Source: Patescibacteria group bacterium (GTDB lineage Bacteria > Patescibacteriota > Minisyncoccia > Phycocordibacterales > JAKFXT01). Taken from it: a stretch of DNA of 64,000 bases. Each line of letters opens with the position of its first letter. Position 1 is the first letter of the stretch. The stretch is from assembly GCA_038063555.1 (NCBI GenBank), contig JBBTUX010000010.1, positions 22,936 through 86,935 of the forward strand. Direction: 5' to 3'. Both the position numbers and the translations under genes were made by a program. Positions 5,048 to 62,862 of this stretch are shown piece after piece. The notes beneath the pieces are model-generated. The model ran no database searches. It had not been told where the DNA came from and worked only from the letters and a program-made list of their open reading frames with translations.

Positions 5048-5121
5048 TGGTGCGGGTAGGGAGAATCGAACTCCCATCATTTGATTGGCAACCAAATGTT
5101 CTACCATTGAACCATACCCGC
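5048..5121 (-). tRNA. tRNA-Gly (anticodon GCC), CCA encoded
   Basis: Reverse complement GCGGGTA-TG-GTTC-AATGGTA-GAAC-A-TTTGG-TTGCCAA-TCAAA-TGAT-GGGAG-TTCGATT-CTCCC-TACCCGC-A-CCA. Confidence 0.85.
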
Positions 5122-5166: not shown

Positions 5167-5272
5167 CAAAAAATGGACTCGTTCCTTACAGGAACAGTAC
5201 CCCAATTGGATTTTTCTTACGCCTACGGCTTATAAAAATCTCAATCGGGCTTCGAGTCCCGCGGACACCTCC
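5167..5272 (-). ncRNA. Candidate structured small RNA X2 (paralog of X1), directly 3' of tRNA-Arg
   Basis: Minus-strand read: GGAGGUGUCCGCGGGACUCGAAGCCCGAUUGAG...GGGGUACUGUUCCUGUAAGGAACGAGUCCAUUUUUUGG. Terminator hairpin GUUCCU-GUA-AGGAAC carries compensatory changes relative to X1. The 5' GGACUCG pairs with the 3' CGAGUCC. The 5' segment is antisense to a tRNA-Arg-like T-arm. Confidence 0.45.
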
Positions 5273-13829: not shown

Positions 13830-13900
13830 GAGTTATGAGCCAGGTGAGTTAGGAGTTATGAATTTAAAAATCGTAACTCATATCTCTTAACTCTTACCTC
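13830..13900. repeat. 'Empty' copy of the GAGTTAYGA inverted-repeat hairpin element
   Basis: Left arm gagttatgagccaggtgagttaggagttatga, loop atttaaaaa, right arm tcgtaactcatatctcttaactcttacctc (reverse-complement units). Confidence 0.6.
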
Positions 13901-13975
13901 GAAGGGGCCACTAGAAACGACAGACTTCGAAATATTTTATAAGTTTATTTTCGCGCTAAGTCGCGAACAAATTTT

Positions 13976-14587: not shown

Positions 14588-14621
14588 AGCGAGCTTAAAG
14601 TTTTATAGCTTCTAGGTTTTT

Positions 14622-14649
14622 CCGCCAAAGGCGGATCCGCCTCAGGCGG
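14622..14649. repeat. GGCGG-family tandem palindromes (intergenic copy)
   Basis: CCGCCaaaGGCGGATCCGCCtcaGGCGG. A 19/20 match to the in-CDS copy at 56190-56209. Confidence 0.6.
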
Positions 14650-14686
14650 AAGCTTTAATACAAATACAAAAAATTCAGAGAGTTGC

Positions 14687-24228: not shown

Positions 24229-24310
24229 TGTCTCTTGAATAATTAAAAACTTAAAAATCAATCTAGTAACATAATTGGTGCATATACTCCTTTTATGTTA
24301 GTGTATAAAA

Positions 24311-24856
24311 ATGACTACAAAAAAAGAATTGTTCACTAAAATAATTTTGACAACTTTGATAGCCGGGACAGTAATAGCGAGTGTGGCTATCGCTCCAGGA
24401 CTTGGTCCCGTTCTTCGTTTATTTGACAATAAAAATAATAAGAGAAGGTTGGGTTTTTCGCGTGCCATTAAAAATTTGGAGGAAAAAAGAATGGTAAAAA
24501 TTTTTAATAAAGACGGAAATTTAATTATTAAAATAACAGATAAAGGAAAGGGGAGGGTTCTAAAATATAAATTTGATGAAATGAAAATTTATAACCCCAA
24601 AAAATGGGATGGGCTATGGAGAATTGTCATGTTTGATATTCCAACAAAAGACAACAAAAAACGAGATATTCTCCGTTTAAAATTAAAAGAAATGGGCTTT
24701 GAAATGACTCAAAGATCTGTTTTCGTTTATCCTTACCCAGCAAAAAACGAGATTGACTTTCTGGGAGAGTATTTGGGAATTAGAAAACATATTACCTGTA
24801 TTCTTGCAAAAGAAATGGAGGGGAGTAGGAATTATAAAAAACTTTTTAAACTTTAG
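24311..24856 (+). CDS. PaaX-like regulator / Cas2-fold domain protein with N-terminal TM segment
   Basis: C-terminal WDGLWRIVMFDIPTKDNKKRDILRLKLKEMGFEMTQRSVFVYP matches the PaaX_C / Cas2-like pattern (W.G.W..V.FdiP...R..LR..L...GF...Q.SVF). Gene flanked by an 11-bp inverted repeat GCATATACTCC (24280-24290) / GGAGTATATGC (24918-24928). Confidence 0.45.
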   Translation: MTTKKELFTKIILTTLIAGTVIASVAIAPGLGPVLRLFDNKNNKRRLGFSRAIKNLEEKRMVKIFNKDGNLIIKITDKGKGRVLKYKFDEMKIYNPKKWDGLWRIVMFDIPTKDNKKRDILRLKLKEMGFEMTQRSVFVYPYPAKNEIDFLGEYLGIRKHITCILAKEMEGSRNYKKLFKL

Positions 24857-31042: not shown

Positions 31043-31906
31043 ATGCACTATTCACCTGATGAGTTACAAAGAAAATTTGATTCTCTGCCTGAAGAACTAA
31101 GGGAAGCGATTACTTCTGTTGACTTTGCCAAGTCCCTGCAAGAAATTGGCAAAACGAGTGGCTTGCACTTAGACCAATTAGATCAACTTTTTGAAGAAGT
31201 CGGTTTTGTTTTACTTGGAATGACACACCCAAGCGAGTTTGGCAGAAAAATTGGTGTTTTATTTAATCTTCCAGAAGTTGCTAGAAACAGTTTGGTAAAA
31301 GAAGTTGATGAAAAAATATTTAAACCAATTAGAACGTCTTTAATGTCTCTTCACAGTAAAACACCAAAAACGACCAACGACTTACGACCAACGACTTACG
31401 ACAGACAAACAAATGAGGTCAAACCCCGAGAACAAGCAATTCCTCATGAAACTGACTATAGTATGTCGAGAGCTGATATATTGTCTGCAATTGAGAACCC
31501 TGTGACCAAAAAAGTTAACATCGATAACACTCCAAAAAGGAATGTAGAAACTAGTGACCCTCATCTATATTTGTCGGAGCATAATGAAATGATTCAAAAA
31601 ATGAAAATTGCTCCTTTAGCAGGAAACATAATTACTCCTAAAAAATCCTTGGCAGAAGAAGCTGTTTTGGTAGCCCAGAAAAAAGTGGAGGGTGACAAAA
31701 GGACTCCCTCTCCCGACAAATCGCAAAATCCCTCTCCAATAATAATTCAGAAAACGCCCCCCGCTCCACAAAATATTCAACCTTTAACAATAGCCACTTC
31801 TCCTTTGGAAAAATTGAGCAGTGTTGTCCGTATTCCCAGACAGTCTGTCAACATTACGACACCGCCTACAACAAAAGGTGTCGATCCTTATAGAGAGGTT
31901 GTTTAA
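31043..31906 (+). CDS. Hypothetical protein with in-frame tandem CGACCAACGACTTACGA repeats (PTTND/PTTYD) and Pro/Thr-rich C-terminus
   Basis: 287 aa. Repeats at 31371-31406. Confidence 0.45.
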   Translation: MHYSPDELQRKFDSLPEELREAITSVDFAKSLQEIGKTSGLHLDQLDQLFEEVGFVLLGMTHPSEFGRKIGVLFNLPEVARNSLVKEVDEKIFKPIRTSLMSLHSKTPKTTNDLRPTTYDRQTNEVKPREQAIPHETDYSMSRADILSAIENPVTKKVNIDNTPKRNVETSDPHLYLSEHNEMIQKMKIAPLAGNIITPKKSLAEEAVLVAQKKVEGDKRTPSPDKSQNPSPIIIQKTPPAPQNIQPLTIATSPLEKLSSVVRIPRQSVNITTPPTTKGVDPYREVV

Positions 31907-32340
31907 GAACCAACAACTGACGACTTACAACTAACAATGAGAAAATTCAAATTTCTTGACTGGCAGGTCTATAAAGACTCTCGGGACTTGTTTTCTGAAA
32001 TATTAAAAATTGTAAAAAAATTACCAAAAGAATATAGATTTGAATTGGGGAGTCAGGTTATTCGCTCGTCTCTTTCTATAACCCTGAACATAGCGGAAGG
32101 TAGCGGAAAAGAATCTGACAAAGAGCTTGTTCGTTTTATTGAGATAAGCCTGGGTTCTGCGTATGAAACATTGGCCTGTTTAGACTCAATGAGAAATAGC
32201 GAGTTGATAACCTTGGTAGAGTTTAACAATTTGCAAGAAAAAATTTCCTCTGTTTGTAATCAACTCGGCGGACTAAAGAAAAAAGTTGTCTTAACAGAGA
32301 AGTTGTAAGTTGTTGGTTGTTGGTTGTAAGTTATAATTAG
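31907..32340 (+). mobile_element. IVS-like inverted-repeat element carrying four-helix-bundle gene #1
   Basis: Left flank gaaccaacaactgacgacttacaactaaca. Right flank gttgtaagttgttggttgttggttgtaagtt (reverse-complement relationship). Located between two operon genes. Confidence 0.5.
31937..32308 (+). CDS. Four-helix-bundle protein (23S rRNA intervening-sequence protein family, TIGR02436/PF05635-like; Avd-like fold)
   Basis: 123 aa. ...SQVIRSSLSITLNIAEGSGKES...GSAYETLACLD is the family pattern (NIAEG..R/K). Confidence 0.7.
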   Translation: MRKFKFLDWQVYKDSRDLFSEILKIVKKLPKEYRFELGSQVIRSSLSITLNIAEGSGKESDKELVRFIEISLGSAYETLACLDSMRNSELITLVEFNNLQEKISSVCNQLGGLKKKVVLTEKL

Positions 32341-32343
32341 CTC

Positions 32344-32868
32344 ATGCAATATCAAGTTCCACAATTTATAGAGGTTGAGGACAAACTTTTCGGTCCACTC
32401 ACTTTAAAACAGTTTATTTACCTTGCTGGGGGGGTTGGCATCGCGGTTGTTCTCTATATTTTCATTCCCATTAAATTTATAGCCATAATTATAGCTGTTC
32501 CTTTTGTCGCTTTTGCTATAGCCCTTTCTTTTTATAAGATAAACAGCAAGCCGTTTATTTTCACACTGGAGGCAGCTGTTGGTTATTGGCTGAAAAACAA
32601 ACTATACATTTGGAAAAAAACAACAAAGAAGATTGAAGCCAAAAAAGAAATGGTTGATGAAGGTCCTTCCATAGAAACTCTTTTAGCCCCCCGTCTTTCT
32701 GACAGTCGTCTTAAAGATTTGGCCTGGAGTTTAGATGTTAAGGAGCGCCTTGATTCAAGCCCCTTGGCAAAATACAAAGAGAAAAAACTTTCATTTGAAG
32801 AAGAGGAGAAGGAGAGGGTCGAGTTCACTAAGAACTATGACCTGGGTGCAAAAGGTCATAGTTCTTAG
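32344..32868 (+). CDS. PrgI-family-like small membrane protein (VirB3 analogue of Gram-positive-type T4SS)
   Basis: MQYQVPQFIEVEDKLFGPLTLKQFIYLAGGVGIAVVLYIF..., then a second TM and a charged tail. Context upstream of VirB4. Confidence 0.4.
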   Translation: MQYQVPQFIEVEDKLFGPLTLKQFIYLAGGVGIAVVLYIFIPIKFIAIIIAVPFVAFAIALSFYKINSKPFIFTLEAAVGYWLKNKLYIWKKTTKKIEAKKEMVDEGPSIETLLAPRLSDSRLKDLAWSLDVKERLDSSPLAKYKEKKLSFEEEEKERVEFTKNYDLGAKGHSS

Positions 32869-33300
32869 AGTTAAGAGTTACGAGATATGAGTTATGAAAA
32901 AATTAAAGATTTTACCGACCTTAGAGTATGGCAAGAGAGTCACAAATTGGTTCTTTTGACATACTTATTAACTAAAAAGTTTCCTGCTGAAGAAAAATTC
33001 TCACTTACTAGCCAACTTCGTAGGGCAGTTGTATCTATAACTTCAAATGTTGCCGAGGGTTTCGGAAGACAAAGCTATAAAGAAAGGATACAATTTTATT
33101 ATATGGCTCAAGGTTCATTAATTGAAGTAAAAAATCAACTTTTAGTGGCAAGAGATATTGGATATCTTGACAAGATAAATTTTGAAAAAGTTATGGAACA
33201 ATCAAATGTCGCTCATCAATTATTGCAAGGATTAATTAGAAGTTCTAAAGAATATCTTACTCGTAACTCGTAACTCTTATCTCATAACTCATTTTATGGC
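32851..33300 (+). mobile_element. IVS-like inverted-repeat element (GAGTTAYGA units) carrying four-helix-bundle gene #2
   Basis: Left arm agagttaagagttacgagatatgagttatga overlaps the start codon. Right arm tcgtaactcgtaactcttatctcataactc overlaps the stop. Arms are reverse complements of each other. Confidence 0.55.
32887..33273 (+). CDS. Four-helix-bundle protein (23S rRNA IVS protein family) #2
   Basis: 128 aa. ...LRVWQESHKLVLLTYLLTKKFPAEEKFSLTSQLRRAVVSITSNVAEGFGRQSYKERIQFYYMAQGSLIEV is the canonical family sequence. Confidence 0.75.
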   Translation: MSYEKIKDFTDLRVWQESHKLVLLTYLLTKKFPAEEKFSLTSQLRRAVVSITSNVAEGFGRQSYKERIQFYYMAQGSLIEVKNQLLVARDIGYLDKINFEKVMEQSNVAHQLLQGLIRSSKEYLTRNS

Positions 33301-33944: not shown

Positions 33945-34095
33945 GGAGTTACGAGTTAAGAGACGCGAGTTACGAACAAGAAAGTCCCAAAAAATACTGA
34001 ATTTGGAGTATAATTTCAGTGTATGACAACAAATAACTTGTTGGGGTCTTTTGTTAATATCATTCTCATAACTCTTATCTCATAACTCTTCCCTT
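33945..34095. repeat. 'Empty' GAGTTAYGA hairpin element between the two virB4 ORFs
   Basis: Left arm ggagttacgagttaagagacgcgagttacga, ~95-bp core containing aatttcagtgtatg, right arm tcataactcttatctcataactc. No four-helix-bundle gene inside. Confidence 0.55.
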
Positions 34096-37463: not shown

Positions 37464-37501
37464 AAACAGCTTTTAGGTTTCAGCTTTCAGCTTCTAGCTT
37501 T

Positions 37502-38164
37502 ATGATAAAAAAATTAAGAAAAATCGTTGGGAAAACTTTTCTAATAGTTGTGGTTTTTTTCGTTATCTCCTCGCCATTAATTGTTTCGGCCGAACCAACG
37601 GCAAAATGCAACCCCGACCAAAAAGACACATATTGTTTGCTGGCGCCCATCCCTTTCTTTGGCGATAGCGGAGACACCTACAAAACCGGCGACATTGGTA
37701 AATATGTAAAAGCTATTATAAATCTTTCTATTGTCATTGCGGCTGTTTTGGCAGTTGTAATGATAACCATAGGCGGTTTTAAATATATGACCAGTGAGTC
37801 TATTGGGCTAAAAGAAGAAGGTAAAAAAAACATAAGAGATGCCTTCTTAGGACTTGTAATTTTGACTTCGTCTTTCTTAATTTTAAAAACCATAAATCCA
37901 GAGCTTCTTAAATTTAATTTAAACATTCAAACAATCGGCGTTCCAGGGAACACGGCTCAACCAAAAAGCACTAGTCCTCCACTAATATATACAGAGGAGC
38001 AAAACAGACAGGGTTTGTATGAAGTAATCCCAGGAGTAGATCTTAAATCGACCCCCAACCTAACACGCGATCAATTCTATACAAACTGTACAGCTAAAGG
38101 AGGGAAGCCTCGTCCAGAAGGACTAGGTCCAGAAAGTCAAGTTTATCGTTGTTACAATAAGTAA
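37502..38164 (+). CDS. Signal-peptide protein with two hydrophobic helices; possible VirB2/TrbC-like pilin
   Basis: Signal peptide, then ...YVKAIINLSIVIAAVLAVVMITIGGFKYM... and ...AFLGLVILTSSFLILKTI... The architecture is pilin-like. Inference only. Confidence 0.3.
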   Translation: MIKKLRKIVGKTFLIVVVFFVISSPLIVSAEPTAKCNPDQKDTYCLLAPIPFFGDSGDTYKTGDIGKYVKAIINLSIVIAAVLAVVMITIGGFKYMTSESIGLKEEGKKNIRDAFLGLVILTSSFLILKTINPELLKFNLNIQTIGVPGNTAQPKSTSPPLIYTEEQNRQGLYEVIPGVDLKSTPNLTRDQFYTNCTAKGGKPRPEGLGPESQVYRCYNK

Positions 38165-38166
38165 TT

Positions 38167-39390
38167 ATGTCTAAATCAACTGCCATCACAATTATTGTCG
38201 TCGTACTCTTGGCCATAAGCGGGGGCCTCGCTTGGTGGTATTTTTCATTGGGACAATCAGGAGTGGGGAACCAAAACAACGACAGTGGTGGAATAAATTT
38301 TTTCCCTTTTGGAAATAACAACGAACCAACGACCAACGACCAACAACTGACAACCGACAAAGAAAATCAAACGGAAAATGCTCCGGAAATTAGAGAGGTT
38401 TCGCGTTTGCCCGTTGCTGGGTTTTTACCACTTGTTGATAATTTAGGATTTCCTTTTGTTCGTTATGTTGACCAGGAAACTGGCAATTTATATGACGCCC
38501 CCCTTGAAATAGTTTCCAAAAAAAGAATAAGCAATACCACCATACCTAAAATCAGAGAAGTTCATTGGCTTTCTGGGGGAAATTCTTTTATTATGCGCTA
38601 CTTGGACGAAAAGGATTCTCTGCAAAGCTTTTATGCCACCCTAAAAGAAAATTCTTCCGCTGAAGGAAGTTTAACGGGACGCTTTCTATTAGAAAATATT
38701 TCTGACTTGAGTTTGTTTAGAACCAACAGTGCTTCAACAAAAATATTTTATTATTTAACAGAAAATTCCGTCGCCACAATGTTTTCCGCCGAAAGCGACG
38801 GTAGCAAGGCCACTCATGTTTACTCCTCCCCAATGAAAGATTGGTTACTTTATGGAATAAATGATTCTTTGGCTTATATTCAAACAAAGTCATCTGGTCT
38901 TGCCCCCTCCTTTGTTTTTTCTCTTAATATTAAAAATGGAACCGCAAACCCAACTCTTTCAAATTTTATTGGCCTTTCTATTCTTCCCAACAAAAAGGGG
39001 GACTTGATTTTATACTCCAGTACTCCTTTTGAATACCCTTTGCTATACATTTATGATGTAAACAAAAAAACTTCAACCCAAACCTCACTTAGAACTTTTG
39101 CTGACAAATGTCGCTGGAGTGAAAGTAATGTAAGTCGCATCATCTGCGCGGTGCCCACAAACATCCCGCGAGGAACTTACCCCGACGACTGGTATAAAGG
39201 CACAATATCTTTTAGTGATAATATTTGGGAAATTGATTCTGTTAGCGGAACGGCAAAGGAGTTGGTAAGTTTGTATAAAAATTCTTTCTTTTTTGACATT
39301 TCTTCTTTTTCTTTAAGCGACAAAGATAAATTTCTTATTTTGCAAGATAAAACAAACAACTCCCTTTGGAGCGTCCGCCTCAAACAATAA
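38167..39390 (+). CDS. Hypothetical membrane-anchored extracytoplasmic protein; contains in-frame CAACCAACGAC repeat
   Basis: 407 aa, N-terminal TM. Repeat at 38321-38358 encodes NEPTTNDQQLTTD. Confidence 0.45.
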   Translation: MSKSTAITIIVVVLLAISGGLAWWYFSLGQSGVGNQNNDSGGINFFPFGNNNEPTTNDQQLTTDKENQTENAPEIREVSRLPVAGFLPLVDNLGFPFVRYVDQETGNLYDAPLEIVSKKRISNTTIPKIREVHWLSGGNSFIMRYLDEKDSLQSFYATLKENSSAEGSLTGRFLLENISDLSLFRTNSASTKIFYYLTENSVATMFSAESDGSKATHVYSSPMKDWLLYGINDSLAYIQTKSSGLAPSFVFSLNIKNGTANPTLSNFIGLSILPNKKGDLILYSSTPFEYPLLYIYDVNKKTSTQTSLRTFADKCRWSESNVSRIICAVPTNIPRGTYPDDWYKGTISFSDNIWEIDSVSGTAKELVSLYKNSFFFDISSFSLSDKDKFLILQDKTNNSLWSVRLKQ

Positions 39391-39965: not shown

Positions 39966-40688
39966 TTATACCGTGCGATGGCGCTTCAACGCAAGCTCTT
40001 GACCTATGGTAAAAATGTTGCTGACTACAAAATAAAGCGCCACCGCCGAAGACAAACTGTGACTAATTATTACAATTAGTATAGGAAAAAAATATTTCAT
40101 TTGAAACTGCATATTTCTAGCAAAGTCATCTTTAAAAGACGTTTTTTCACCGTCTTTTTTCGCTGGTGTGGCAGGAAAAGAAAGAATGGCCTGAATATAT
40201 TGAGTCACCCCAGCCAAAATAGCCAGAATCCAACTTTTTTGAGCCATGTCAAATATAAAAAACTTCATGGAAACAAACTCTGGAGACCCCACAAAAGAAT
40301 AAAGAATCTCTGGTTTTATAGAAGGGAGCCCTCCTTTATAAAAAATCCAATATAGGGCAATAACAACCGGTATTTGAATTACCAAAACAAGAATACTGGC
40401 AAAAGGGTTAACTTTTGCCTCCTTATACAAATCCAGAGTTGCCTTGCCTAGAGCCTGCCGATCGTCTTTAAACTTTTTCCTAATCTCCTCCATTTTTGGT
40501 TCTATACCCCTCATTTTTATTTGAGTCAAAAGAGCTTTTTTAGTCAAAGGAAAAAGAAGTAGTTTGACCAAAACCGTTGTCAAAATTACCGCCAAAGCCA
40601 CATTCCCCAACGGTAAAAGATCAATCAAAAAAACATTTAGATTATAAATGGGCTGATAGAATACAGTGAAAAAAATTCCTTCATTCAT
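39966..40688 (-). CDS. yidC: Membrane protein insertase YidC (short form)
   Basis: ...NVALAVILTTVLVKLLLFPLTKK...QIPVVIALYWIF... are YidC/Oxa1 core helices. Confidence 0.8.
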   Translation of the reverse strand: MNEGIFFTVFYQPIYNLNVFLIDLLPLGNVALAVILTTVLVKLLLFPLTKKALLTQIKMRGIEPKMEEIRKKFKDDRQALGKATLDLYKEAKVNPFASILVLVIQIPVVIALYWIFYKGGLPSIKPEILYSFVGSPEFVSMKFFIFDMAQKSWILAILAGVTQYIQAILSFPATPAKKDGEKTSFKDDFARNMQFQMKYFFPILIVIISHSLSSAVALYFVVSNIFTIGQELALKRHRTV

Positions 40689-41397: not shown

Positions 41398-42738
41398 ATG
41401 TTTGACACCAAACAACTTTGGGAAACAGTTTTGGAAAACATTGAAACCGATGTTTCACAGGCAACTTTTAGCACTTGGTTTAAAGATACTGTCATTGTGA
41501 GAATAGAAGATGGCGTTGTTTTTCTTTCGGTTCCCAATCAATTTGTAAAAGAGTGGTTGGCAAACAAATATCACAAAGCCATACTAAAAAAACTGCGCGA
41601 AGGAGCTGAGCAAGTCAGAAATGTTGAGTATGTGGTTAGCAAAGAACCGCCCAAACAAGAAATTGCGAGTAAAAAAGTCAACAACCCAACAACCGAGATG
41701 CCTTTGGCTGATTTTTATGTGAACAAAGAAGACAACTTAAATCCTCGTTATACTTTTGATTCGTTTGTAGTTGGTTCTTTTAATGATTTGGCTTTTGCCT
41801 CGACCCAGGCTGTGATTAAAAAACCAGGAATCGCTTACAACCCACTTTTTATTTACGGAAACACTGGTTACGGCAAAACTCATCTGATTCAAGCGGTGGG
41901 AAATTATATTAAAAGCGTTTCTCCTAGTATGAAAGTTTATTATATAACTTCTGAAAATTACTATTTGGGGCTGGTGAATGCTATGCAAGAAAATAAAATA
42001 CCTCTTTTTAAAGAAAAATATAGAAAATATGATTTCCTTATAATGGACGATGTTCAGTTTTTATCCAACAAAGAAAAAACTCAGGATGAGCTTTTCCATT
42101 TATTTAATACTCTCTATGATAACAACAAACAAATAATTTTTTCTTCCGATAAACACATAAATCAAATACCGAATTTGGAAGACCGTATTCGTACCCGCTT
42201 TGGGGCAGGAATGATAGTGGATATTCAAGCCCCAGACTATGATGCCCGGGTCGCTATAATACAAAAAAAATGCCTTTCCCAAAACAACTCTGTTTCTCCA
42301 GAGATTGTTGAATATTTAGCCAGTTCTGATAATAGCATTCGTGAACTTGAGGGAGCCCTAAACACCATAACCTATCACATGCAGCTAAAAAACAGGATTA
42401 TTTCCTTGACGGAAATAAAAAATATTATAAGGGAAACCAGCAAACCCAAAAGGTCTTTTTCTGTTAAAGAGATTATCAAAACAATCGCTGATTTTTATGA
42501 TGTGCCAGAAAATAGTATTTATGAAAAAACCAGACGCAAAGAAGTGGTAAAGCCAAGGCAAATTATTATGTATATCTTAAGAGAGGACTTCAAAGTATCT
42601 TACCCTACCATAGGGGAGAAGTTAGGAGGTCGTGACCACACAACTGTGATTCACTCTTGTGAGAAAATAAAAAGGGAGTTAAAAACGGACACCACTTTAA
42701 TCGAAGAAATAGATTATATTAGGACAATGTTGAATTAA
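41398..42738 (+). CDS. dnaA: Chromosomal replication initiator DnaA
   Basis: Walker A GNTGYGKTHLIQA, ...FLIMDDVQFL..., and a C-terminal DNA-binding domain ...RDHTTVIHSCEKI... Confidence 0.9.
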   Translation: MFDTKQLWETVLENIETDVSQATFSTWFKDTVIVRIEDGVVFLSVPNQFVKEWLANKYHKAILKKLREGAEQVRNVEYVVSKEPPKQEIASKKVNNPTTEMPLADFYVNKEDNLNPRYTFDSFVVGSFNDLAFASTQAVIKKPGIAYNPLFIYGNTGYGKTHLIQAVGNYIKSVSPSMKVYYITSENYYLGLVNAMQENKIPLFKEKYRKYDFLIMDDVQFLSNKEKTQDELFHLFNTLYDNNKQIIFSSDKHINQIPNLEDRIRTRFGAGMIVDIQAPDYDARVAIIQKKCLSQNNSVSPEIVEYLASSDNSIRELEGALNTITYHMQLKNRIISLTEIKNIIRETSKPKRSFSVKEIIKTIADFYDVPENSIYEKTRRKEVVKPRQIIMYILREDFKVSYPTIGEKLGGRDHTTVIHSCEKIKRELKTDTTLIEEIDYIRTMLN

Positions 42739-42937
42739 AGTTGGGGAAAAGTTATGTATAAAAAGAAAAAACTTTGGGAAAAACACGTCACTTATCAACA
42801 TTTAATTTTTAAAAAATGAAAAATTACAAAAAAGAAAAAAGTAATAAAGGTGTTGTTATTTTAAAGAAATAAATTATAAGTAATAAAAATGGCTTTTTTT
42901 AGGTTTATTAAATAATAAACAGAACTATAATACTAAT
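42739..42937. promoter_or_regulatory. Candidate oriC region (dnaA-dnaN intergenic, AT-rich with a DnaA-box-like site)
   Basis: TTATCAACA, one mismatch from TTATCCACA, inside an 85-90% AT tract. The flanking rpmH-dnaA spacer (41227-41397) also has box-like TATCACCACA. Confidence 0.45.
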
Positions 42938-44038
42938 ATGTATATAGAATGTCAGAAAGATAAATTAAGTGAGTTTGTTATAAGAGCAGAGAAAATAGCG
43001 AATAAAAACGCCAGTCTGCCAATTTTAGCATGCCTTCTTTTGGTAGCGAAAGATAAAAATATTATCGGTAAGGCTACAAATCTAGAAATTGGCGTCGAAA
43101 TGTCTATCCCAGCCAAAGTTAATAAAGAGGGGGTTGTGGCTATTTCCGCCAATATTTTTTCCCAAGCTATAAATAATTTACAAGGAGGAAAAACAGTTTC
43201 TTTGGAGGAAAAAAATGGTTTTTTGGTTATAAAAAATGATATTTCAGAAATTCAATTAAAAACACAATCGCCACAAGACTTTCCTTTAATACCAAAAGGG
43301 GAGGATGGAGAGGTTGTTAATTTTAAAATAAAAGATTTTGTTTATGGTTTAAAGACGGTTATCTTCAGTTCCTCTCTCTCAAGTATAAAACCAGAGCTTG
43401 GCAGTGTCTATGTTTACCCAGAAAACCAAGAATTAGTTTTTGTTGCCACAGACTCATTTCGTTTATCTGAAAAAAGAATTGTTTCTAAACAGATAAATAA
43501 TTTTCCCTCAATACTTATTCCTCAAAAAAACTGCTTAGAATTGATAAGAGTTTTTGATGGGCTTAATGAAGACGCCAATCTTTTTTTTGGTAAAAATCAA
43601 ATTAACATAAGCACAAGCACAACGCACTTTACCTCAAGAATTGTAGACGGGTCCTTCCCTGACTATAAACAAATCATTCCTAAAAAAGGAGAAACAGTTA
43701 TACATTGTTTGAAACAAGACTTGTTTGACGGTCTAAAAGCTATAACAGTTGTTTTTGATAAATTCAATCAAGTTACTTTTGATACAAAAATAAAAGAAGG
43801 ATTTATTATTCTTTCTTCTAAAAACACAGACGTTGGGGAAGGTGAATGTAAATTAAAAATAAAAGGAGAGGGCGAAGATATTGTTATTAGTTTTAATCAA
43901 CAATATATCAAAGAGTCATTTAGCGGTTTTACTGATGATTCTATAACCCTAACTTTTGGGGGGCCACATAAACCACTTTTAATTGAAGGGGGAAAAAGTA
44001 GTTATTTTCGATACTTAGTTATGCCTATGAATAGATAA
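42938..44038 (+). CDS. dnaN: DNA polymerase III beta sliding clamp
   Basis: 366 aa, three-domain clamp, directly downstream of dnaA. Confidence 0.85.
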   Translation: MYIECQKDKLSEFVIRAEKIANKNASLPILACLLLVAKDKNIIGKATNLEIGVEMSIPAKVNKEGVVAISANIFSQAINNLQGGKTVSLEEKNGFLVIKNDISEIQLKTQSPQDFPLIPKGEDGEVVNFKIKDFVYGLKTVIFSSSLSSIKPELGSVYVYPENQELVFVATDSFRLSEKRIVSKQINNFPSILIPQKNCLELIRVFDGLNEDANLFFGKNQINISTSTTHFTSRIVDGSFPDYKQIIPKKGETVIHCLKQDLFDGLKAITVVFDKFNQVTFDTKIKEGFIILSSKNTDVGEGECKLKIKGEGEDIVISFNQQYIKESFSGFTDDSITLTFGGPHKPLLIEGGKSSYFRYLVMPMNR

Positions 44039-50886: not shown

Positions 50887-51438
50887 AGTTTATTTTTTTG
50901 GAGTTATGGTCATTGTATCACGCAAAAAAGAGCCCCAAAAACTGCCCCCAAAGAGAAAAGATATGACCATAAAAAACCCTTGACAGCAAGGAGTCTTTAT
51001 GCTACACTTCTAAACAGCCCGTAAGTCTAAACCATGTCTTTTCTTTTATAAGAAAAGAGCCAAACTTACTAAATACAAGTCAAATCCAGTGCAGTATTCT
51101 CTAAGGAATTGGGTCCCCGGACCTACTGGTGTTTTCGCAAGGACGTTTTTGGTTTTTACTTTATGTAAAACACTGATTCTATCCTCAGGAAAATTCTTAA
51201 CTTTTAAAGCCTCGCTTTTAAAGTATCCCTTAGAGAATAATGAACTGGATTTGCTTGTCCTGTAGAAAATTTGGTGACCTAAATTTTCGTTAGGAGCTTT
51301 TTTTACTTTACGCTCACCGTAATTTTTTGGTAGTGGCGCTCTTTCGATTTTTACTTTGTAATTTCCTCGCCAAAATTTTTTGTTATATAAAAAAATAATA
51401 AAAAACTATATAGTTTAGAAAATTTTAGCGGACAGAGC

Positions 51439-53841: not shown

Positions 53842-54279
53842 ATGGTACTAAAAATAGAAAGTTTAAAAGAGTTAAAAAATTTCTCTAAGAAATTTCTTAA
53901 AGAATTAAATCCAGTAAAAACTGGCGCCACTATTTTAGCGCTTCAGGGAAATTTAGGAAGCGGTAAAACTGCTTTTGTAAAAGTTTTGGGAAAGAATCTT
54001 GGTATTAAAAAAACCATAATTAGTCCCACTTTCATTATTATGAAACTGTACGATATATCGTACAAAAATTTTAAAAAACTGATTCATGTTGATGCGTACA
54101 GATTGGAAAAAGAAAAAGAGTTGGAAGTTTTGGGTTGGCAGGAAATTTTGAAAAACCCAGAGAATTTAATTGCTATTGAATGGCCAGAAAATGTTTCAAA
54201 AGTTATTCCCCAAAGTGCCAAAAAACTTAAATTTAAATTTGTTGATGAAAAGACACGAAGTGTAAAGTCCGAGATATGA
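53842..54279 (+). CDS. tsaE: tRNA threonylcarbamoyladenosine biosynthesis ATPase TsaE
   Basis: Walker A ILALQGNLGSGKTAFVK...HVDAYRL. The last codons lie within a GAGTTAYGA repeat arm. Confidence 0.7.
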   Translation: MVLKIESLKELKNFSKKFLKELNPVKTGATILALQGNLGSGKTAFVKVLGKNLGIKKTIISPTFIIMKLYDISYKNFKKLIHVDAYRLEKEKELEVLGWQEILKNPENLIAIEWPENVSKVIPQSAKKLKFKFVDEKTRSVKSEI

Positions 54280-54355
54280 GTTACGAGATATGAGTTATGA
54301 TAAAGGCATAAGAAGGTGAACAATTTTTAATATCGTAACTCCTAACTCATAACTC
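54270..54355. repeat. 'Empty' GAGTTAYGA hairpin element between tsaE and polA
   Basis: Left arm gagatatgagttacgagatatgagttatga, loop ~32 bp, right arm tcgtaactcctaactcataactc, then aaaatttcagtgtATG (the polA start). Confidence 0.6.
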
Positions 54356-54368
54356 AAAATTTCAGTGT

Positions 54369-56831
54369 ATGGCAAAAATCTCAAAAAAAGAAAAAGCTGA
54401 AAGTAGCGCCAAAGCCAAGCGTTTGGTTCTCCTTGACTCTCACGCTATTTTGCACCGTGCCTTTCACGCGCTTCCAGATTTTTCTACAGGGAAAGGTGAG
54501 CCAACAGGAGCCCTTTATGGACTTTCAGCCATGCTCATTAAAATAATCAATGATTTAAAGCCAGATTATGTTGCCGCTTGTTTTGATTTAGCGGGGCCAA
54601 CCTTTAGACACGACGCTTATGAAGGATACAAGGCGAAGCGCATAAAAACTGATGACAATTTAATTACGCAAATAAATAGAAGCCGAGATATTTTCAAAGC
54701 GTTCAGTATTCCAATTTATGAATACGCTGGTTTTGAAGCCGACGATATGCTCGGGACAATTGTAGAGCAAGTATCCGCCAAAGGCGGATTCGCCTCTGGC
54801 GGAAAAGAAATAGATGTAATTATTGCTTCAGGGGACATGGACACTATGCAATTAATTAATGATAAAAAAGTAAGGGTTTACACTCTCAAAAAAGGAATAA
54901 ATGACACTATAATTTATGATGAAAAAGCCGTAATAGAAAGGTTTGGTTTTCCACCCAAACTTTTGCCGGACTACAAAGGGCTTCGTGGAGACCCGTCGGA
55001 TAATATTATTGGTATTGCTGGAATTGGAGAAAAAACAGCCACGGATTTGATTGTTAATTTTGGCACAATTGAAAATATTTATAAAAAGTTAAAAAAAGAT
55101 AAAGAAGCATTTGTTAAAGTTGGTATTAAAGAAAGAATAATAAAGTTGCTTGAAGAGGGGGAAGAAGAGGCGGAGTTTAGCAAGGAATTGGCCACCATTA
55201 GAAAAGACGCGCCCATTGAGTATAAAATTCCAAACGAAGAGTGGACCAAGCAATTTAAAATTGAAGAAGCACTGTCTTTGTTTTCTGACTTGGAGTTTAG
55301 GGCCCTGTCTCGGCGCATAAAGGAGGTTTTTGGAAAAAATGTCCCGGCACCCGAAGAGACGCCTGAAGGGATCGGGACCTCCACCTCTGAAAGTATTCAG
55401 AGCGTCGGGGAGAGTGACATAAAGGAAGTTGGCCTTGCTCTTTGGGTTATTAATTCTAATTACACTAATCCGACACAGGACGACATTTATCATTACGCTA
55501 AAACAAATGAATTTGAAAAAGCCAAAAGTATTATTTTTGCCGAAATAAAAAAGCAAAAGCTGGATTTTATTTACGAAAAAATAGAAAAACCGCTTATTCC
55601 CATTTTGAAAAAAATGCACGAAAGAGGCATTCAGGTTGATACTAAATATTTAAAAGAACTTTCTAAGGAATATACTATTGAATTGCAAAAGTTTGAGAAA
55701 GTTATATATCGTCATGCTGGTTTTGAATTTAATATAAATTCTCCGAAACAACTTGGTGAAGCGCTTTTTGAAAAAATGGGATTGGGTTTAAAAAATCAAA
55801 AGAAAACTTCAACTGGGCAAAAATCCACGCGCGAGTCCGAGCTTGAAAAAATGAAGGAATTGCATCCAATAATTGCCGAGATTCTTTCTTACCGAGAATT
55901 ACAAAAACTCCTTTCAACTTACATAGACAATATTCCAGAGATGGTTGGCGTTGACGGTCGTTTGCATTGCGATTTCATTCCGACCGGCTCTACCACAGGA
56001 CGCTTTTCTTCGGCAAATCCCAATATGCAAAATATCCCAATAAAAACAGAGCTAGGAAGGAGAATCAGAAGCGCTTTTATTGCCGAAAGAGGATTTCTCT
56101 TGGCATCCTTTGACTATTCACAAATTGAACTTAAAGTTGCCGCTTTTCTTTCGGGGGACGAAAAATTGATTGAAATTTTTTCCTCCGAAGGCGGATCCGC
56201 CTCTGGCGGAAAAAGGGCAGATATTCATACATCGGTCGCAGCCCAGGTTTTTGGTGTGCCAGAGGAATTGGTGGACAAAGAAATGCGTCGCCAAGCTAAA
56301 GTGATAAACTTCGGAATTCTTTATGGAATGGGAGTGAATGCTTTAAAACAAAATCTAGGAACAAATAGAGCGGACGCCCAGAAATTCTATAATGATTATT
56401 TCAAAAATTTTTCAGGTATTGCCAATTATTTAAACAAAGTGAAAGCGGAGGCCTTTAGAAAAGGTTATACGGAAACATTTTTTGGCCGCCGCCGCTATTT
56501 TGAGGGAATTAAATCACCCCTTCCCTTTATTCGTGCGGCGGCGGAGCGTATGGCTATAAATGCGCCAATTCAAGGGACGCAAGCGGATATTATAAAAATT
56601 GCTATGAGTAGAATTGAAGAAATGATTAAAAAAGAAGGATTGGAAAAAGAGGTTTTTCCGCTTCTACAAATTCACGACGAACTTATTTATGAAATAAAAG
56701 AGGATTTAATTGAGAGTATTGCTCCCAAAATTCAGAAAATTATGGAAGATGTAATTTTACCCAAAGAAATTTATGGAATTAGGCTTAACGCCAGCTTCTC
56801 AAAAGGTAAAAATTGGGGGGAGATGTATTAG
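54369..56831 (+). CDS. polA: DNA polymerase I (5'-3' exonuclease + polymerase domains) with two in-frame palindromic-repeat insertions
   Basis: 5' nuclease motifs (...LLDSHAILHRAF..., GIAGIGEKTA). Polymerase motifs DYSQIELKVAAFLS, RRQAKVINFGILYG, QIHDELIYE. Inserted GGFASGGK (54783-54802) and GGSASGGKR (56190-56209). Confidence 0.9.
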   Translation: MAKISKKEKAESSAKAKRLVLLDSHAILHRAFHALPDFSTGKGEPTGALYGLSAMLIKIINDLKPDYVAACFDLAGPTFRHDAYEGYKAKRIKTDDNLITQINRSRDIFKAFSIPIYEYAGFEADDMLGTIVEQVSAKGGFASGGKEIDVIIASGDMDTMQLINDKKVRVYTLKKGINDTIIYDEKAVIERFGFPPKLLPDYKGLRGDPSDNIIGIAGIGEKTATDLIVNFGTIENIYKKLKKDKEAFVKVGIKERIIKLLEEGEEEAEFSKELATIRKDAPIEYKIPNEEWTKQFKIEEALSLFSDLEFRALSRRIKEVFGKNVPAPEETPEGIGTSTSESIQSVGESDIKEVGLALWVINSNYTNPTQDDIYHYAKTNEFEKAKSIIFAEIKKQKLDFIYEKIEKPLIPILKKMHERGIQVDTKYLKELSKEYTIELQKFEKVIYRHAGFEFNINSPKQLGEALFEKMGLGLKNQKKTSTGQKSTRESELEKMKELHPIIAEILSYRELQKLLSTYIDNIPEMVGVDGRLHCDFIPTGSTTGRFSSANPNMQNIPIKTELGRRIRSAFIAERGFLLASFDYSQIELKVAAFLSGDEKLIEIFSSEGGSASGGKRADIHTSVAAQVFGVPEELVDKEMRRQAKVINFGILYGMGVNALKQNLGTNRADAQKFYNDYFKNFSGIANYLNKVKAEAFRKGYTETFFGRRRYFEGIKSPLPFIRAAAERMAINAPIQGTQADIIKIAMSRIEEMIKKEGLEKEVFPLLQIHDELIYEIKEDLIESIAPKIQKIMEDVILPKEIYGIRLNASFSKGKNWGEMY

Positions 56832-60481: not shown

Positions 60482-60979
60482 ATGAAAAAGGAGATTTGTT
60501 TAATACTGGACAATATTAGAAGTGCAGAAAATGTGGGCTCCATTTTCCGCACCTCGGACGCTGTCGGAGTTTCTAAAATTTTTCTTATTGGCATAACGCC
60601 TTGCCCCATAGATAGATTTGGCAGAGAAAGAAAAGACATTGCTAAATCTGCTTTGGGAGCAGAAAAAACAATTGAATGGGAGTATCGCAAAAACGCTGTT
60701 CAACTTTTGCGGGAATTAAAGAAAAGAAAATTCTTAATAATTGCACTTGAACAAGATGAGAAAGCCCTGGATTACAAAAAAATATCCGCCAGAGGCGGAC
60801 CAGCCTATGGCTGGAAAGGGAGGACAGCTTTAATCATTGGCAATGAAGTCACGGGAATTTCCAAAGAAATATTAAAAATGAGTGATTGTGTAGTCGAAAT
60901 CCCAATGAAGGGCAAAAAAGAATCATTAAATGTTTCCGTTGCGACGGGTGTTGCCCTGTATCGTTTGCTCAAGATATAA
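60482..60979 (+). CDS. SpoU/TrmH-family RNA 2'-O-methyltransferase; contains an in-frame GGCGG-type palindrome
   Basis: ...ENVGSIFRTSDAVGV...LIIGNEVTGIS...VEIPMKGKKESLNVSVATGVALY. The palindrome CCGCCAGAGGCGG-ACCAGCCTATGGCTGG (60786-60814) encodes ARGGPAYGW. Confidence 0.75.
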   Translation: MKKEICLILDNIRSAENVGSIFRTSDAVGVSKIFLIGITPCPIDRFGRERKDIAKSALGAEKTIEWEYRKNAVQLLRELKKRKFLIIALEQDEKALDYKKISARGGPAYGWKGRTALIIGNEVTGISKEILKMSDCVVEIPMKGKKESLNVSVATGVALYRLLKI

Positions 60980-61929: not shown

Positions 61930-62862
61930 TTAGGAACAGAGAAGTTTTTGATGTTTAGAACAAAAGTGAGCACTTCGGCCATTTACTATTTTTCGTAAAA
62001 TTACTCCTTTGCATTGGTGTTTTTGACAGGGCTTACCTGTTTTTCTGTAGGCCATGTGTTTATTTTGGAATTTGCCTTTTTTGCCATCAACATTTCTATA
62101 GTCAGAGGTTGAATCTCCCCCAAAGTGAATACCGCCCTTTAGGGCTGGTTTGATTGCCCGAAAAACTTTTTGCAAAAGTTTTTCGGGTAAATTTCGCACT
62201 CTCTCTTCTGGATTAACCCCAGAATGAAAAAGAATTTCATCAGAGTAAATATTGCCAATTCCAGAAATCACAGTTTGATCCATCAAAGCTGTTTTTATTT
62301 TGGTGTTTTGGCGTTTAAAAATTCGCTCCCTAAAAATTTTATATGTAAAATTTTTAGGGAGGGGTTCGGGTCCCAAGTGCGCAAGGTGAGGGGAATGAAG
62401 AAGTTTGTCGGTTTCAATAAGAGCAATTTTCCCAAATTTTCTCGTGTCGCAAAAAACAAGATGTTTTCCATTACTAAGCGTAAAAACAGCATGAATGAAG
62501 CGATTAAACGGGTTACGGAGAGCCTCGTTCTTTTCTTTTTCGTGTGGTATCCAAACTTCCTTTTTCTTTTTGTTGGTTGTTGGTTGTAAGTCGTAGGTTT
62601 TTTTGTAATACCCAACCATTAAATGACCAGTCATTTTCATATGAATTAAGACCGTTTTATTACCCGAAAGATTTATCAATATATTTTTGGCACGTCTTTT
62701 AATAGAAATTACTTTTTTATTTAATATTTCTTTTTTAAATTTAGAAAAGGCAATGGAGTGAAACATTTTTTCGAAGTCCGTCCAAACATCTTTTATCGAA
62801 AGCTTGGGTAGGACTTTCTGTAGTCCAGAAACGGTTGTTTGTACCTCGGGTAATTCGGGCAT
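61930..62862 (-). CDS. mutM: Formamidopyrimidine-DNA glycosylase; contains in-frame CAACCAAC-type repeat insertion
   Basis: MPELPEVQTTV... N-terminus, H2TH region, and a C-terminal zinc finger (CQKHQC...C..C). Insertion ...YDLQPTTNKKKKE... is encoded by 62570-62597. Confidence 0.85.
   Translation of the reverse strand: MPELPEVQTTVSGLQKVLPKLSIKDVWTDFEKMFHSIAFSKFKKEILNKKVISIKRRAKNILINLSGNKTVLIHMKMTGHLMVGYYKKTYDLQPTTNKKKKEVWIPHEKEKNEALRNPFNRFIHAVFTLSNGKHLVFCDTRKFGKIALIETDKLLHSPHLAHLGPEPLPKNFTYKIFRERIFKRQNTKIKTALMDQTVISGIGNIYSDEILFHSGVNPEERVRNLPEKLLQKVFRAIKPALKGGIHFGGDSTSDYRNVDGKKGKFQNKHMAYRKTGKPCQKHQCKGVILRKIVNGRSAHFCSKHQKLLCS

Follow-up and report, generated by a model that had tools for sequence, protein, structure and literature searches.

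Heptamer repeats (the short tandemly repeated repetitive, or STRR, sequences and the TAACTGA type) and the PF05635 "intervening sequence (IVS) protein" family have, to our knowledge, been described for decades without a function. The cyanobacterial repeats STRR1-3 have the units CCCCAGT, TTGGTCA and CAACAGT. Rickettsia palindromic elements (RPEs) are reportedly palindromic and about 100-150 bp long. In the 23S rRNA IVS of Coxiella burnetii, three to four tandem copies of GACAGAT precede the S23p open reading frame (ORF), a 28-bp stem is formed and cleaved by RNase III, and the number of heptamers varies among strains (PMC4990558). TAACTGA-type heptamer repeats occur in Beggiatoaceae, Cyanobacteria and Bacteroidetes, where sets inside ORFs are found only in the stop-free orientation, mostly in hypothetical proteins and at protein ends, a pattern for which a selection filter has been proposed (MacGregor 2015, PMC4679880). 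Here, we describe a 64-kb stretch (the window) of a Patescibacteria (Paceibacteria/Parcubacteria) metagenome-assembled genome from Hainich groundwater that carries tandem heptamer arrays. Some form the inverted arms of elements around PF05635 genes, and three lie in frame inside the DNA repair gene mutM and two genes of a type IV secretion system (T4SS)-like operon, g31043 and g38167. The three coding arrays are DNA-level insertions relative to the closest orthologues, and all occupy permissive sites.

The paired arrays of the window resemble the IVSs of Coxiella burnetii and Leptospira (PMC4990558) in having a PF05635 ORF within terminal inverted repeats that give a stem of ~28 bp, in placing tandem heptamers directly before the ORF start (GACAGAT of Coxiella is close to the unit GACAGAC found here) and in their sporadic presence among relatives. 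This likeness concerns the arms only, as the coding arrays are solo. The window elements differ from IVSs in lying between protein-coding genes of a T4SS-like operon instead of in helix 25/45 of 23S rRNA, in having ORF-less versions and in being accompanied by solo in-frame arrays of the same units, which are undescribed for IVSs. By analogy with the heptamers before the S23p ORF, the 28-bp stem and the RNase III cleavage in Coxiella, we regard the arms as putative IVS-type arms in an mRNA operon context.

The arrays share with STRR and TAACTGA repeats the tandem, period-specific 7-nt units (known sets have 2-6 copies, with many sets per genome), the mostly intergenic position, often beside start codons and mixed with related heptamers, and the occasional sets within ORFs, in the stop-free orientation and at protein peripheries. 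They differ in phylum, in unit sequence (RACNNAC, GAGNTAN and CAGCTTT), in occurring mainly as inverted pairs that form hairpins, and in the link to PF05635, which is not mentioned in PMC4679880. Moreover, the in-frame copies lie in conserved proteins that can be compared with orthologues, including a housekeeping enzyme fold, and not in hypothetical proteins. The first-pass annotation of this DNA had likened the in-frame copies to Rickettsia palindromic elements. That parallel, which extends to in-frame miniature inverted-repeat transposable elements (MITEs) such as QMITE of Coxiella (PMC5896051), holds for a family that is found both between genes and in frame, absent from orthologues, at surface-exposed permissive sites. 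It fails for the coding arrays themselves, which measure 28-35 nt, are non-palindromic and unstructured, lack an inverted partner and follow a 7-nt unit consensus instead of a master sequence. The simple sequence repeats of contingency loci likewise have tandem short units in or near genes, but the arrays here are imperfect mosaics kept in frame, without on/off logic, and no variation in unit number was seen among the population contigs from four other samples. We conclude that the array is RPE-like in behaviour, as an intergenic family that survives in frame, and a heptamer repeat of the STRR/TAACTGA type in the nature of its sequence.

The 20-mer GTTGGTTGTTGGTTGTAAGT, reported at first pass in the right arm of one element and in mutM, occurs exactly twice in the window, on the + strand at 32312-32331 and 62572-62591 (the original positions, 32309-32334 and 62575-62594, were off by about 3 nt). 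It has no further window match at up to three mismatches and is absent from 100 dinucleotide shuffles. Both copies belong to a set of five tandem arrays of 4-5 heptamers each with the consensus RACNNAC. Two of these are the inverted arms around a PF05635 gene and three lie in frame and in sense orientation inside mutM, g31043 and g38167, so that the proposal of one repeat family serving both as element arms and within three genes stands, with the related units of g31043 and g38167 located at 31372-31406 and 38324-38358. The vocabulary of the five arrays comprises AACCAAC (six times), GACCAAC and GACTTAC (four times each) and other units. Their family relationship is real, although the exact 20-mer is no evidence for direct copying, since a 20-nt identical run between some pair of the five arrays arises in ~20% of unit permutations given the shared vocabulary (P ~0.2), and between an arm and a coding array in 12% (P = 0.12).

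The periodicity is specific to seven. Runs of at least three RACNNAC units number five in the window against none in 100 shuffles, self-similarity with a lag of 7, taken as 17 or more matches in 21, is seen at 45 positions and at none for lags 5, 6, 8 and 9, and Tandem Repeats Finder recovers the same arrays with periods of 7 and 14. For comparison, we used three sets of related sequences: 80 syntenic loci taken from genome collections, a set of 80 mutM loci of metagenomic origin, and individual contigs of selected orthologues. Related loci (1.43 Mb) hold 44 arrays of period 7, compared with 0-8 for periods 5, 6 and 8-11, so that such arrays are common in the relatives. Taken together, these counts show a strong over-representation of the family.

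A second family, GAGNTAN, contributes six arrays, all intergenic in the window, and a third, CAGCTTT, a single intergenic array. The window has 13 heptamer arrays in total, of which just three fall in coding sequence even though the coding fraction is 0.87 (P = 2.6e-7). Heptamer arrays are therefore essentially an intergenic feature to which the three coding copies are exceptions, and they are strongly counter-selected in coding sequence. A role as DNA-uptake sequences, conceivable from the inverted pairs after genes and the permissive coding sites, was rejected, because the window has three or more unit families that are unrelated to one another and because its arrays are so few (13 in 64 kb).

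The gene at 61930-62862 is mutM/fpg, based on its Fapy_DNA_glyco and H2TH domains. Read on the coding strand, its array has the phase A|ACCTAC GACTTAC AACCAAC AACCAAC and yields KK-TYDLQPTTN-KKKK. The two closest of 120 mutM homologues, P0002/L001 (83-84% identity; its contig shares synteny with the window) and P0003 (72-73%), are devoid of the array and have a loop that is 11 residues shorter. Most lineages that carry the insert are longer by 33 nt, and in each of the three coding genes the array amounts to a flexible loop of ~9-12 amino acids. In an alignment with PDB structures, Fpg residues 82-116 stand in place of six residues of the Lactococcus lactis enzyme. The AlphaFold model of Fpg (mean pLDDT 81) predicts the repeat-encoded residues 89-97 to be coil with a pLDDT of ~59, at the tip of a beta-hairpin between strands 86-90 and 102-106.

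The arrays of the other two genes are in comparable positions. In g31043, for which tblastn finds orthologues in 36 loci, the array (period 14, 2.4 copies and 100% match by Tandem Repeats Finder) marks the start of a hypervariable linker that follows a conserved N-terminal domain. It is missing from L004 and other orthologues, and L027 carries an independent array in the same linker. In g38167, the N-terminal transmembrane helix is followed by a hypervariable linker, and the array is located there. The closest orthologue (L004) is without it, and the more distant orthologues L051, with a perfect ACCAACG x4, and L020 have independent arrays in the same linker. These comparisons agree with two further predictions of the first-pass annotation. 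The repeat-encoded residues are lineage-specific insertions, absent from P0002 and P0003 for mutM and from L004 for the two operon genes, and they are predicted to map to surface-type sites, that is, a low-confidence beta-hairpin tip in Fpg and disordered linkers in the other two proteins.

The mutM arrays allow a comparison at the level of DNA, for which we used eight genes (window, L002, L003, L096, L168, L169, L170 and L171) whose proteins are 55-68% identical to that of the window. All eight have four heptamers at an identical site and in an identical codon phase. Of the 128 fixed sites (A2, C3, A6 and C7 of each unit), 125 are conserved, and positions 1, 4 and 5 vary freely. With a period of seven, each fixed position falls in turn on the first, second and third base of a codon. 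Every one of the 24 NAY codons (Tyr, Asn, Asp or His) in the arrays ends in C, compared with 184 of 369 in the remainder of these genes (Fisher P = 1.3e-7); genome codon usage is 29% TAC, 33% AAC and 39% GAC. A period of seven is not a multiple of three, and protein-level selection therefore cannot generate the arrays. The pattern points to a DNA-level process.

The distribution of the array among mutM genes is patchy. For every array-bearing mutM, the nearest relatives (73-86% identity outside the loop) have a uniform short loop of 12 residues, and array-bearing sequences are each other's nearest in just two pairs. Either the array was gained at least 7-8 times at one site and in one phase, or it was gained once long ago and lost precisely many times, and the uniform short loop favours gains. 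The units, furthermore, follow dialects. In P0011 the units read AATTAAC, three of the four having T instead of C3, and its sister P0004 has AACYTAC units. The mutM of P0019 is characterised by AACNNAT, with T replacing C7 in three of its four units. On the contig of P0019, an intergenic array 400 nt upstream displays the same private dialect, AACAGAT AACATAT AACAAAT. The mutM array of P0013 is partly decayed, with 10 of 16 fixed positions retained. Judged from sequence comparison, dialects and distribution argue for a continuing DNA-level process, which could be re-insertion or gene conversion from a genome's own pool of arrays, and they argue against both a static old insertion and a universal selected motif.

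The orientation of coding arrays is consistent throughout. A total of 1.81 Mb of sequence contains 31 RACNNAC arrays, of which ~15 lie in long ORFs, all in sense and none clearly antisense. These include the mutM arrays in eight lineages and those in g38167 orthologues, the g31043 orthologue of L027 and a 296-codon ORF in L021. In sense, most variants of the RACNNAC unit are free of stop codons and encode hydrophilic peptides rich in T, N, Q, P and D. The antisense strand gives peptides rich in V, G, C, W and L, and GTAAGTC units introduce TAA stops. GAGNTAN has stop codons in several frames and never occurs in coding sequence in the window. A filter of this kind is what MacGregor (2015) put forward for TAACTGA repeats within ORFs. 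The RNA of the three coding sites folds no better than shuffles (z = +0.54, +0.93 and +0.16), and neither the mutM array nor that of g38167 has an inverted partner within 700 nt.

Table of features. Heptamer arrays of the window, the genes that contain them and the PF05635 and hairpin elements
Feature	Position	Strand	Remarks
ORF-less hairpin, GAGNTAN arms	13845..13901	+	downstream of rpsO; fold z = -3.75
Gene g31043, conserved hypothetical of T4SS-like operon	31043..31906	+	no Pfam domain
Solo array in g31043, 5 units (GACCAAC GACTTAC GACCAAC GACTTAC GACAGAC)	31372..31406	+	in frame, encodes TTNDLRPTTYDRQ
Left arm of PF05635 element 1 (AACCAAC AACTGAC GACTTAC AACTAAC)	31908..31935	+	ends at ATG
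PF05635 (23S_rRNA_IVP / S23p, bAvd-like) four-helix-bundle gene 1	31937..32308	+	Pfam E = 4e-28
Right arm of element 1 (minus-strand AACTTAC AACCAAC AACCAAC AACTTAC)	32305..32332	-	carries GTTGGTTGTTGGTTGTAAGT; adjoins stop codon of gene 1
PF05635 element 2, GAGNTAN arms 32868-32895 and 33263-33290 around gene 32887-33273	32868..33290	+	
ORF-less hairpin, GAGNTAN arms	33946..34090	+	between g33296 and VirB4/TraG-like ATPase gene; fold z = -4.5
Solo intergenic array, CAGCTTT (third heptamer family)	37466..37502	+	immediately upstream of start of gene 37502-38164
Gene g38167, membrane-anchored conserved hypothetical, same operon as g31043	38167..39390	+	orthologues in 62 loci
Solo array in g38167, 5 units	38324..38358	+	in frame, encodes EPTTNDQQLTTD
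ORF-less hairpin, GAGNTAN arms	54271..54355	+	between tsaE and polA; fold z = -4.8
mutM/fpg gene	61930..62862	-	310 aa; Pfam Fapy_DNA_glyco + H2TH domains
Solo array in mutM (AACCTAC GACTTAC AACCAAC AACCAAC)	62572..62599	-	in frame, encodes K-TYDLQPTTN

The window encodes two PF05635 elements, each with a gene between inverted heptamer arrays, and three hairpins of the same design without an ORF. The duplex energies between arms reach -46 kcal/mol for element 1 and -49.5 kcal/mol for element 2, beyond the first percentile of controls (-40.5 kcal/mol), and the paired arrays fold strongly as RNA (z from -3.8 to -4.8). The left arm of an element is no copy of its right arm; what the two have in common is the unit consensus, by which they match at 71-78% in register. 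L004 and L005 are without the PF05635 genes, gene 1 being missing from its slot in both, and in L006, L008, L020, L021 and others the PF05635 genes occupy other slots. In relatives, the spacers that hold hairpins in the window are very short (8 nt between g33296 and the ATPase gene in L004, ~6 nt between tsaE and polA in L001). Measured against such relatives, both the PF05635 genes and the hairpins without an ORF, arms included, are themselves insertions into very short spacers.

The association of PF05635 genes with heptamers extends beyond the window. We compared 20 PF05635 genes, including six on plasmids (L172-L177) of Nostoc (two), Calothrix, Geminocystis, Picosynechococcus and Riemerella, with 664 control genes. 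Period-7 arrays are present on both flanks of 65% of the PF05635 genes compared with 0.15% of the controls, and for 10 of the 20 the flank-flank duplex energy lies beyond the control first percentile. The bracketed loci include L006, L008, L020, L021, L032, L037, L041, L061, L065 and L068. Inverted arrays are clear in five of the six plasmid cases, and that of Calothrix has an array downstream only. The unit sequence around PF05635 genes differs by locus (Nostoc edaphicum, for example, has GTAGGGA x7 ... TCCCTAC x4), and the PF05635 subtype most similar to gene 1, which L020 and L021 carry and which is 58% identical, likewise has RACNNAC arms. Literature searches returned no described link between PF05635 and heptamers beyond the Coxiella IVS paper, and searches on in-frame repeats in the candidate phyla radiation (CPR) returned just that paper and MacGregor 2015. 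We tentatively speculate that PF05635 genes and heptamer arrays belong together as a single conserved module that extends over Patescibacteria, Cyanobacteria, Bacteroidota and the Coxiella IVS, and in which the protein may recognise, lay down or homogenise the arrays. If so, the in-frame arrays of mutM and the operon genes would be solo sites that an active process keeps in register and in the genome's dialect, and the cyanobacterial STRR-type repeats would be linked to the "IVS protein" family.

Other small repeats also enter coding sequence in this lineage. The beta-hairpin-tip loop of Fpg that follows HMKMTGH (the orthologue of 62560-62620) is 23 to 43 residues long, and in L086, L135, L085, L099, L119, L095 and L084 it contains unrelated, near-perfect hairpin inserts, such as TTCCTCATTCCAACGTTCT-CA-AGAACGTTGGAATGAGGAA, which encodes PHSNVLKNVGMRK. 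Insertions of small repeats have a hot spot in this loop. A GC-rich double hairpin, TCCGCC-NNN-GGCGGA-TCCGCC-NNN-GGCGGA, is found at 14617-14651, 54770-54804, 56177-56211 and 60781-60815. It is in frame twice in polA, where it adds 8 and 9 amino acids relative to L001 and L171 (SAKGGFASGG and SEGGSASGG), and once in a SpoU/TrmH methylase gene (+8 amino acids); the remaining copy is intergenic. In L101, the mutM loop is filled by this family as well. It is the truly RPE-like element of the lineage and a family distinct from the heptamer arrays.

The explanation that we favour, and hold to be probable, is that heptamer arrays of the IVS-arm/STRR type are added as in-frame blocks at permissive sites, kept fresh at the DNA level and filtered by selection. 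The arrays would occur primarily as inverted pairs whose ~28-bp stems bracket PF05635 genes and ORF-less hairpins. Three genes would each have gained a single sense array as one block with a length that is a multiple of three (+33 nt in mutM), at sites that presumably tolerate extra residues, namely the beta-hairpin tip of Fpg and the disordered linkers of the two operon proteins. Insertion of a block in one step is likelier than slippage because slippage would pass through frameshifts of +7 and +14 nt, perfect four-unit in-frame arrays exist (L051 and L021) and the mutM insert is +33 nt. We infer that entry could proceed by template switching or gene conversion from other arrays through microhomology, for which TAC AA / AAC AA at the Tyr-Lys codons of the loop would serve. 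The ends of the array match Tyr-Lys (TAC AAA) before and Lys after the insertion point, which makes such an entry plausible. Existing arrays would then be re-homogenised against the array pool of the genome, and selection would act only as a filter for orientation, frame and a permissive site. The coding copies themselves probably have no function of their own.

The main rival, which we consider unlikely, holds that the coding arrays are selected nucleic-acid elements, either binding sites for PF05635 or a cold-shock-type protein or targets of an antisense arm RNA that would give an RNase III substrate of ~21 bp. It would account for the fixed positions that eight orthologues at 55-68% identity retain, synonymous sites included, and for the pairing behaviour of the unit, whose position 1 R pairs with U either way, which lets GUNNGUU pair with RACNNAC. 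A 21-bp duplex is possible between the mutM array and the right arm of element 1, heptamer-containing IVS stems are cut by RNase III in Coxiella, and heptamer arrays enclose PF05635 genes in three phyla. Yet most close relatives are without the array, which is thus dispensable, the perfect match in the window is within chance, positions 4-5 are unmatched between coding arrays and antisense arms elsewhere (for example in L171), and arrays with decayed periodicity exist, as in P0013. The idea that a Thr/Asn/Pro/Gln-rich flexible linker was selected at the protein level, with similar codons arising by chance, fits the three sites, all of which are loops or linkers rich in polar residues, but it is effectively excluded by a period that is not a multiple of three, by codons that end in C in 24 of 24 cases against ~50% in the same genes and 29-39% genome-wide, and by the use of the same units in non-coding arms.

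Two further explanations, both of which we regard as improbable, concern the way in which the arrays arose. A small mobile palindromic element of the RPE or MITE kind might transpose and survive where it lands in frame. Presence and absence among orthologues would follow, and in-frame invasion by small repeats does happen in the lineage, given the double hairpin in polA (twice) and spoU and the unrelated perfect hairpin inserts that fill the Fpg loop elsewhere (L086, L135, L085, L099, L119, L095 and L101). The coding arrays, however, are 28-35 nt long, have no inverted half and fold like shuffles, the element arms share a unit consensus without being copies, a 20-mer identity arises in ~20% of unit permutations, and a Pfam scan of 40 window ORFs, which covers most of the larger genes, finds no transposase or reverse transcriptase. 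Consistent target-site duplications are also missing. Direct repeats around the mutM array (two ACAAAAA copies spaced by 33 nt in the window, and TACAA in L002) were candidates, but L003 and L168 do not fit and we do not use them as evidence. Replication slippage of a seed heptamer in place, as in microsatellites or contingency loci, could produce the perfect arrays of L051 (ACCAACG x4), L021 (AACCAAC x4) and L020 (AACCGAC x4), and the Tyr-Lys codons TACAAA look like the end of a unit. Heptamer number also varies among strains in the Coxiella IVS, and Cyanothece intergenic repeats show indels in 7-nt steps (PMC4679880). Against this, steps of +7 or +14 nt within a gene are frameshifts, so that a four-unit in-frame array needs a single step, the arrays are mosaics of different units and not one unit expanded, the concerted dialect changes of P0011 and P0019 are not products of slippage, and no length variation was seen among population contigs. 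A diversity-generating retroelement target, considered since PF05635 is Avd-like, was dropped: the 40 scanned ORFs contain no reverse transcriptase, and variation falls on unit positions 1, 4 and 5 without being specific to adenine.

Several observations weigh against the block insertion and DNA-level renewal that we favour. The identical site, length (mostly +11 amino acids) and phase in 8-11 mutM orthologues are compatible with a single old insertion followed by many precise losses; parsimony favours repeated gains, without proving them. Fixed-position conservation could equally reflect selection for a nucleic-acid function. Unit sharing within versus between genomes gave a positive signal for the genome of the window and no clear signal for the other three of the four tested, and the data from the window genome amount to 64 kb. 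The direct repeats flanking the mutM insert are inconsistent across orthologues. Contigs of the mutM region from four other samples are 99.9-100% identical and show no polymorphism, and clusters of the proteins at 90% identity have one member each. The repeat had been called "active or recently active" at first pass. Patchy distribution and dialects uphold this on a longer time scale, but current activity is unproven because polymorphism is lacking among the population contigs.

The new aspects of this locus are the phylum, the inverted pairs around PF05635 genes within operons, the location in a housekeeping-enzyme fold, and an orthologue series that combines maintenance at the nucleotide level with turnover of dialects. 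The window brings heptamer repeats and the PF05635 family together in a third and very different phylum. The mutM series provides a natural experiment, in which the same 28-nt array occurs in the same codon phase in a housekeeping-enzyme loop across many orthologues, with its nucleotide periodicity held against codon usage and following the dialect of each genome. An ongoing process of "array writing" or conversion at the DNA level thereby becomes testable. In-frame repeat insertions build up in the core enzymes of small CPR genomes, a point to bear in mind for annotation and for the reading of CPR-specific protein insertions. If the coding copies are mere tolerated by-products, they would be a well-documented curiosity and not a new mechanism.

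The window is core chromosome and belongs to a contig of 96-100 kb. It encodes dnaA-dnaN (41.4-44 kb), pnp, uvrD, polA, ruvB and tyrS, and its T4SS-like operon includes PrgI, a TraG/VirB4-like ATPase and a T4SS pilin. One XerC/D-type integrase was detected among the 40 Pfam-scanned ORFs, and Rfam at the gathering threshold identifies five tRNAs and no rRNA or other family in the window. Since dnaA and dnaN (41398-44038) have yidC upstream (39966-40688), the window probably spans the region of the chromosomal replication origin.

Some other repeats of the window are unrelated to the arrays. The longest inverted repeat (51060-51109 / 51225-51274), with 50-nt arms that are 76% complementary and separated by 115 nt, occupies the spacer from ruvB to a T2SSE/PilB-like ATPase gene and is not a heptamer array. 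A 48-nt direct repeat (1089-1136 / 5168-5215; 79% identical) with the internal stem CTCCTTACAGGAG adjoins two similar tRNA genes (1411-1481 and 5051-5121) and could represent either a tRNA flank that was duplicated or a small RNA. The motif AATTTCAGTGTATG precedes the polA start (54357-54372) and recurs at 34009-34022, in the loop of the 33946-34090 hairpin and ahead of the 20-codon ORF MTTNNLLGSFVNIILITLIS. A related copy precedes gene 24311 (24295-24328), and the motif may represent a conserved translation-start context or a leader.

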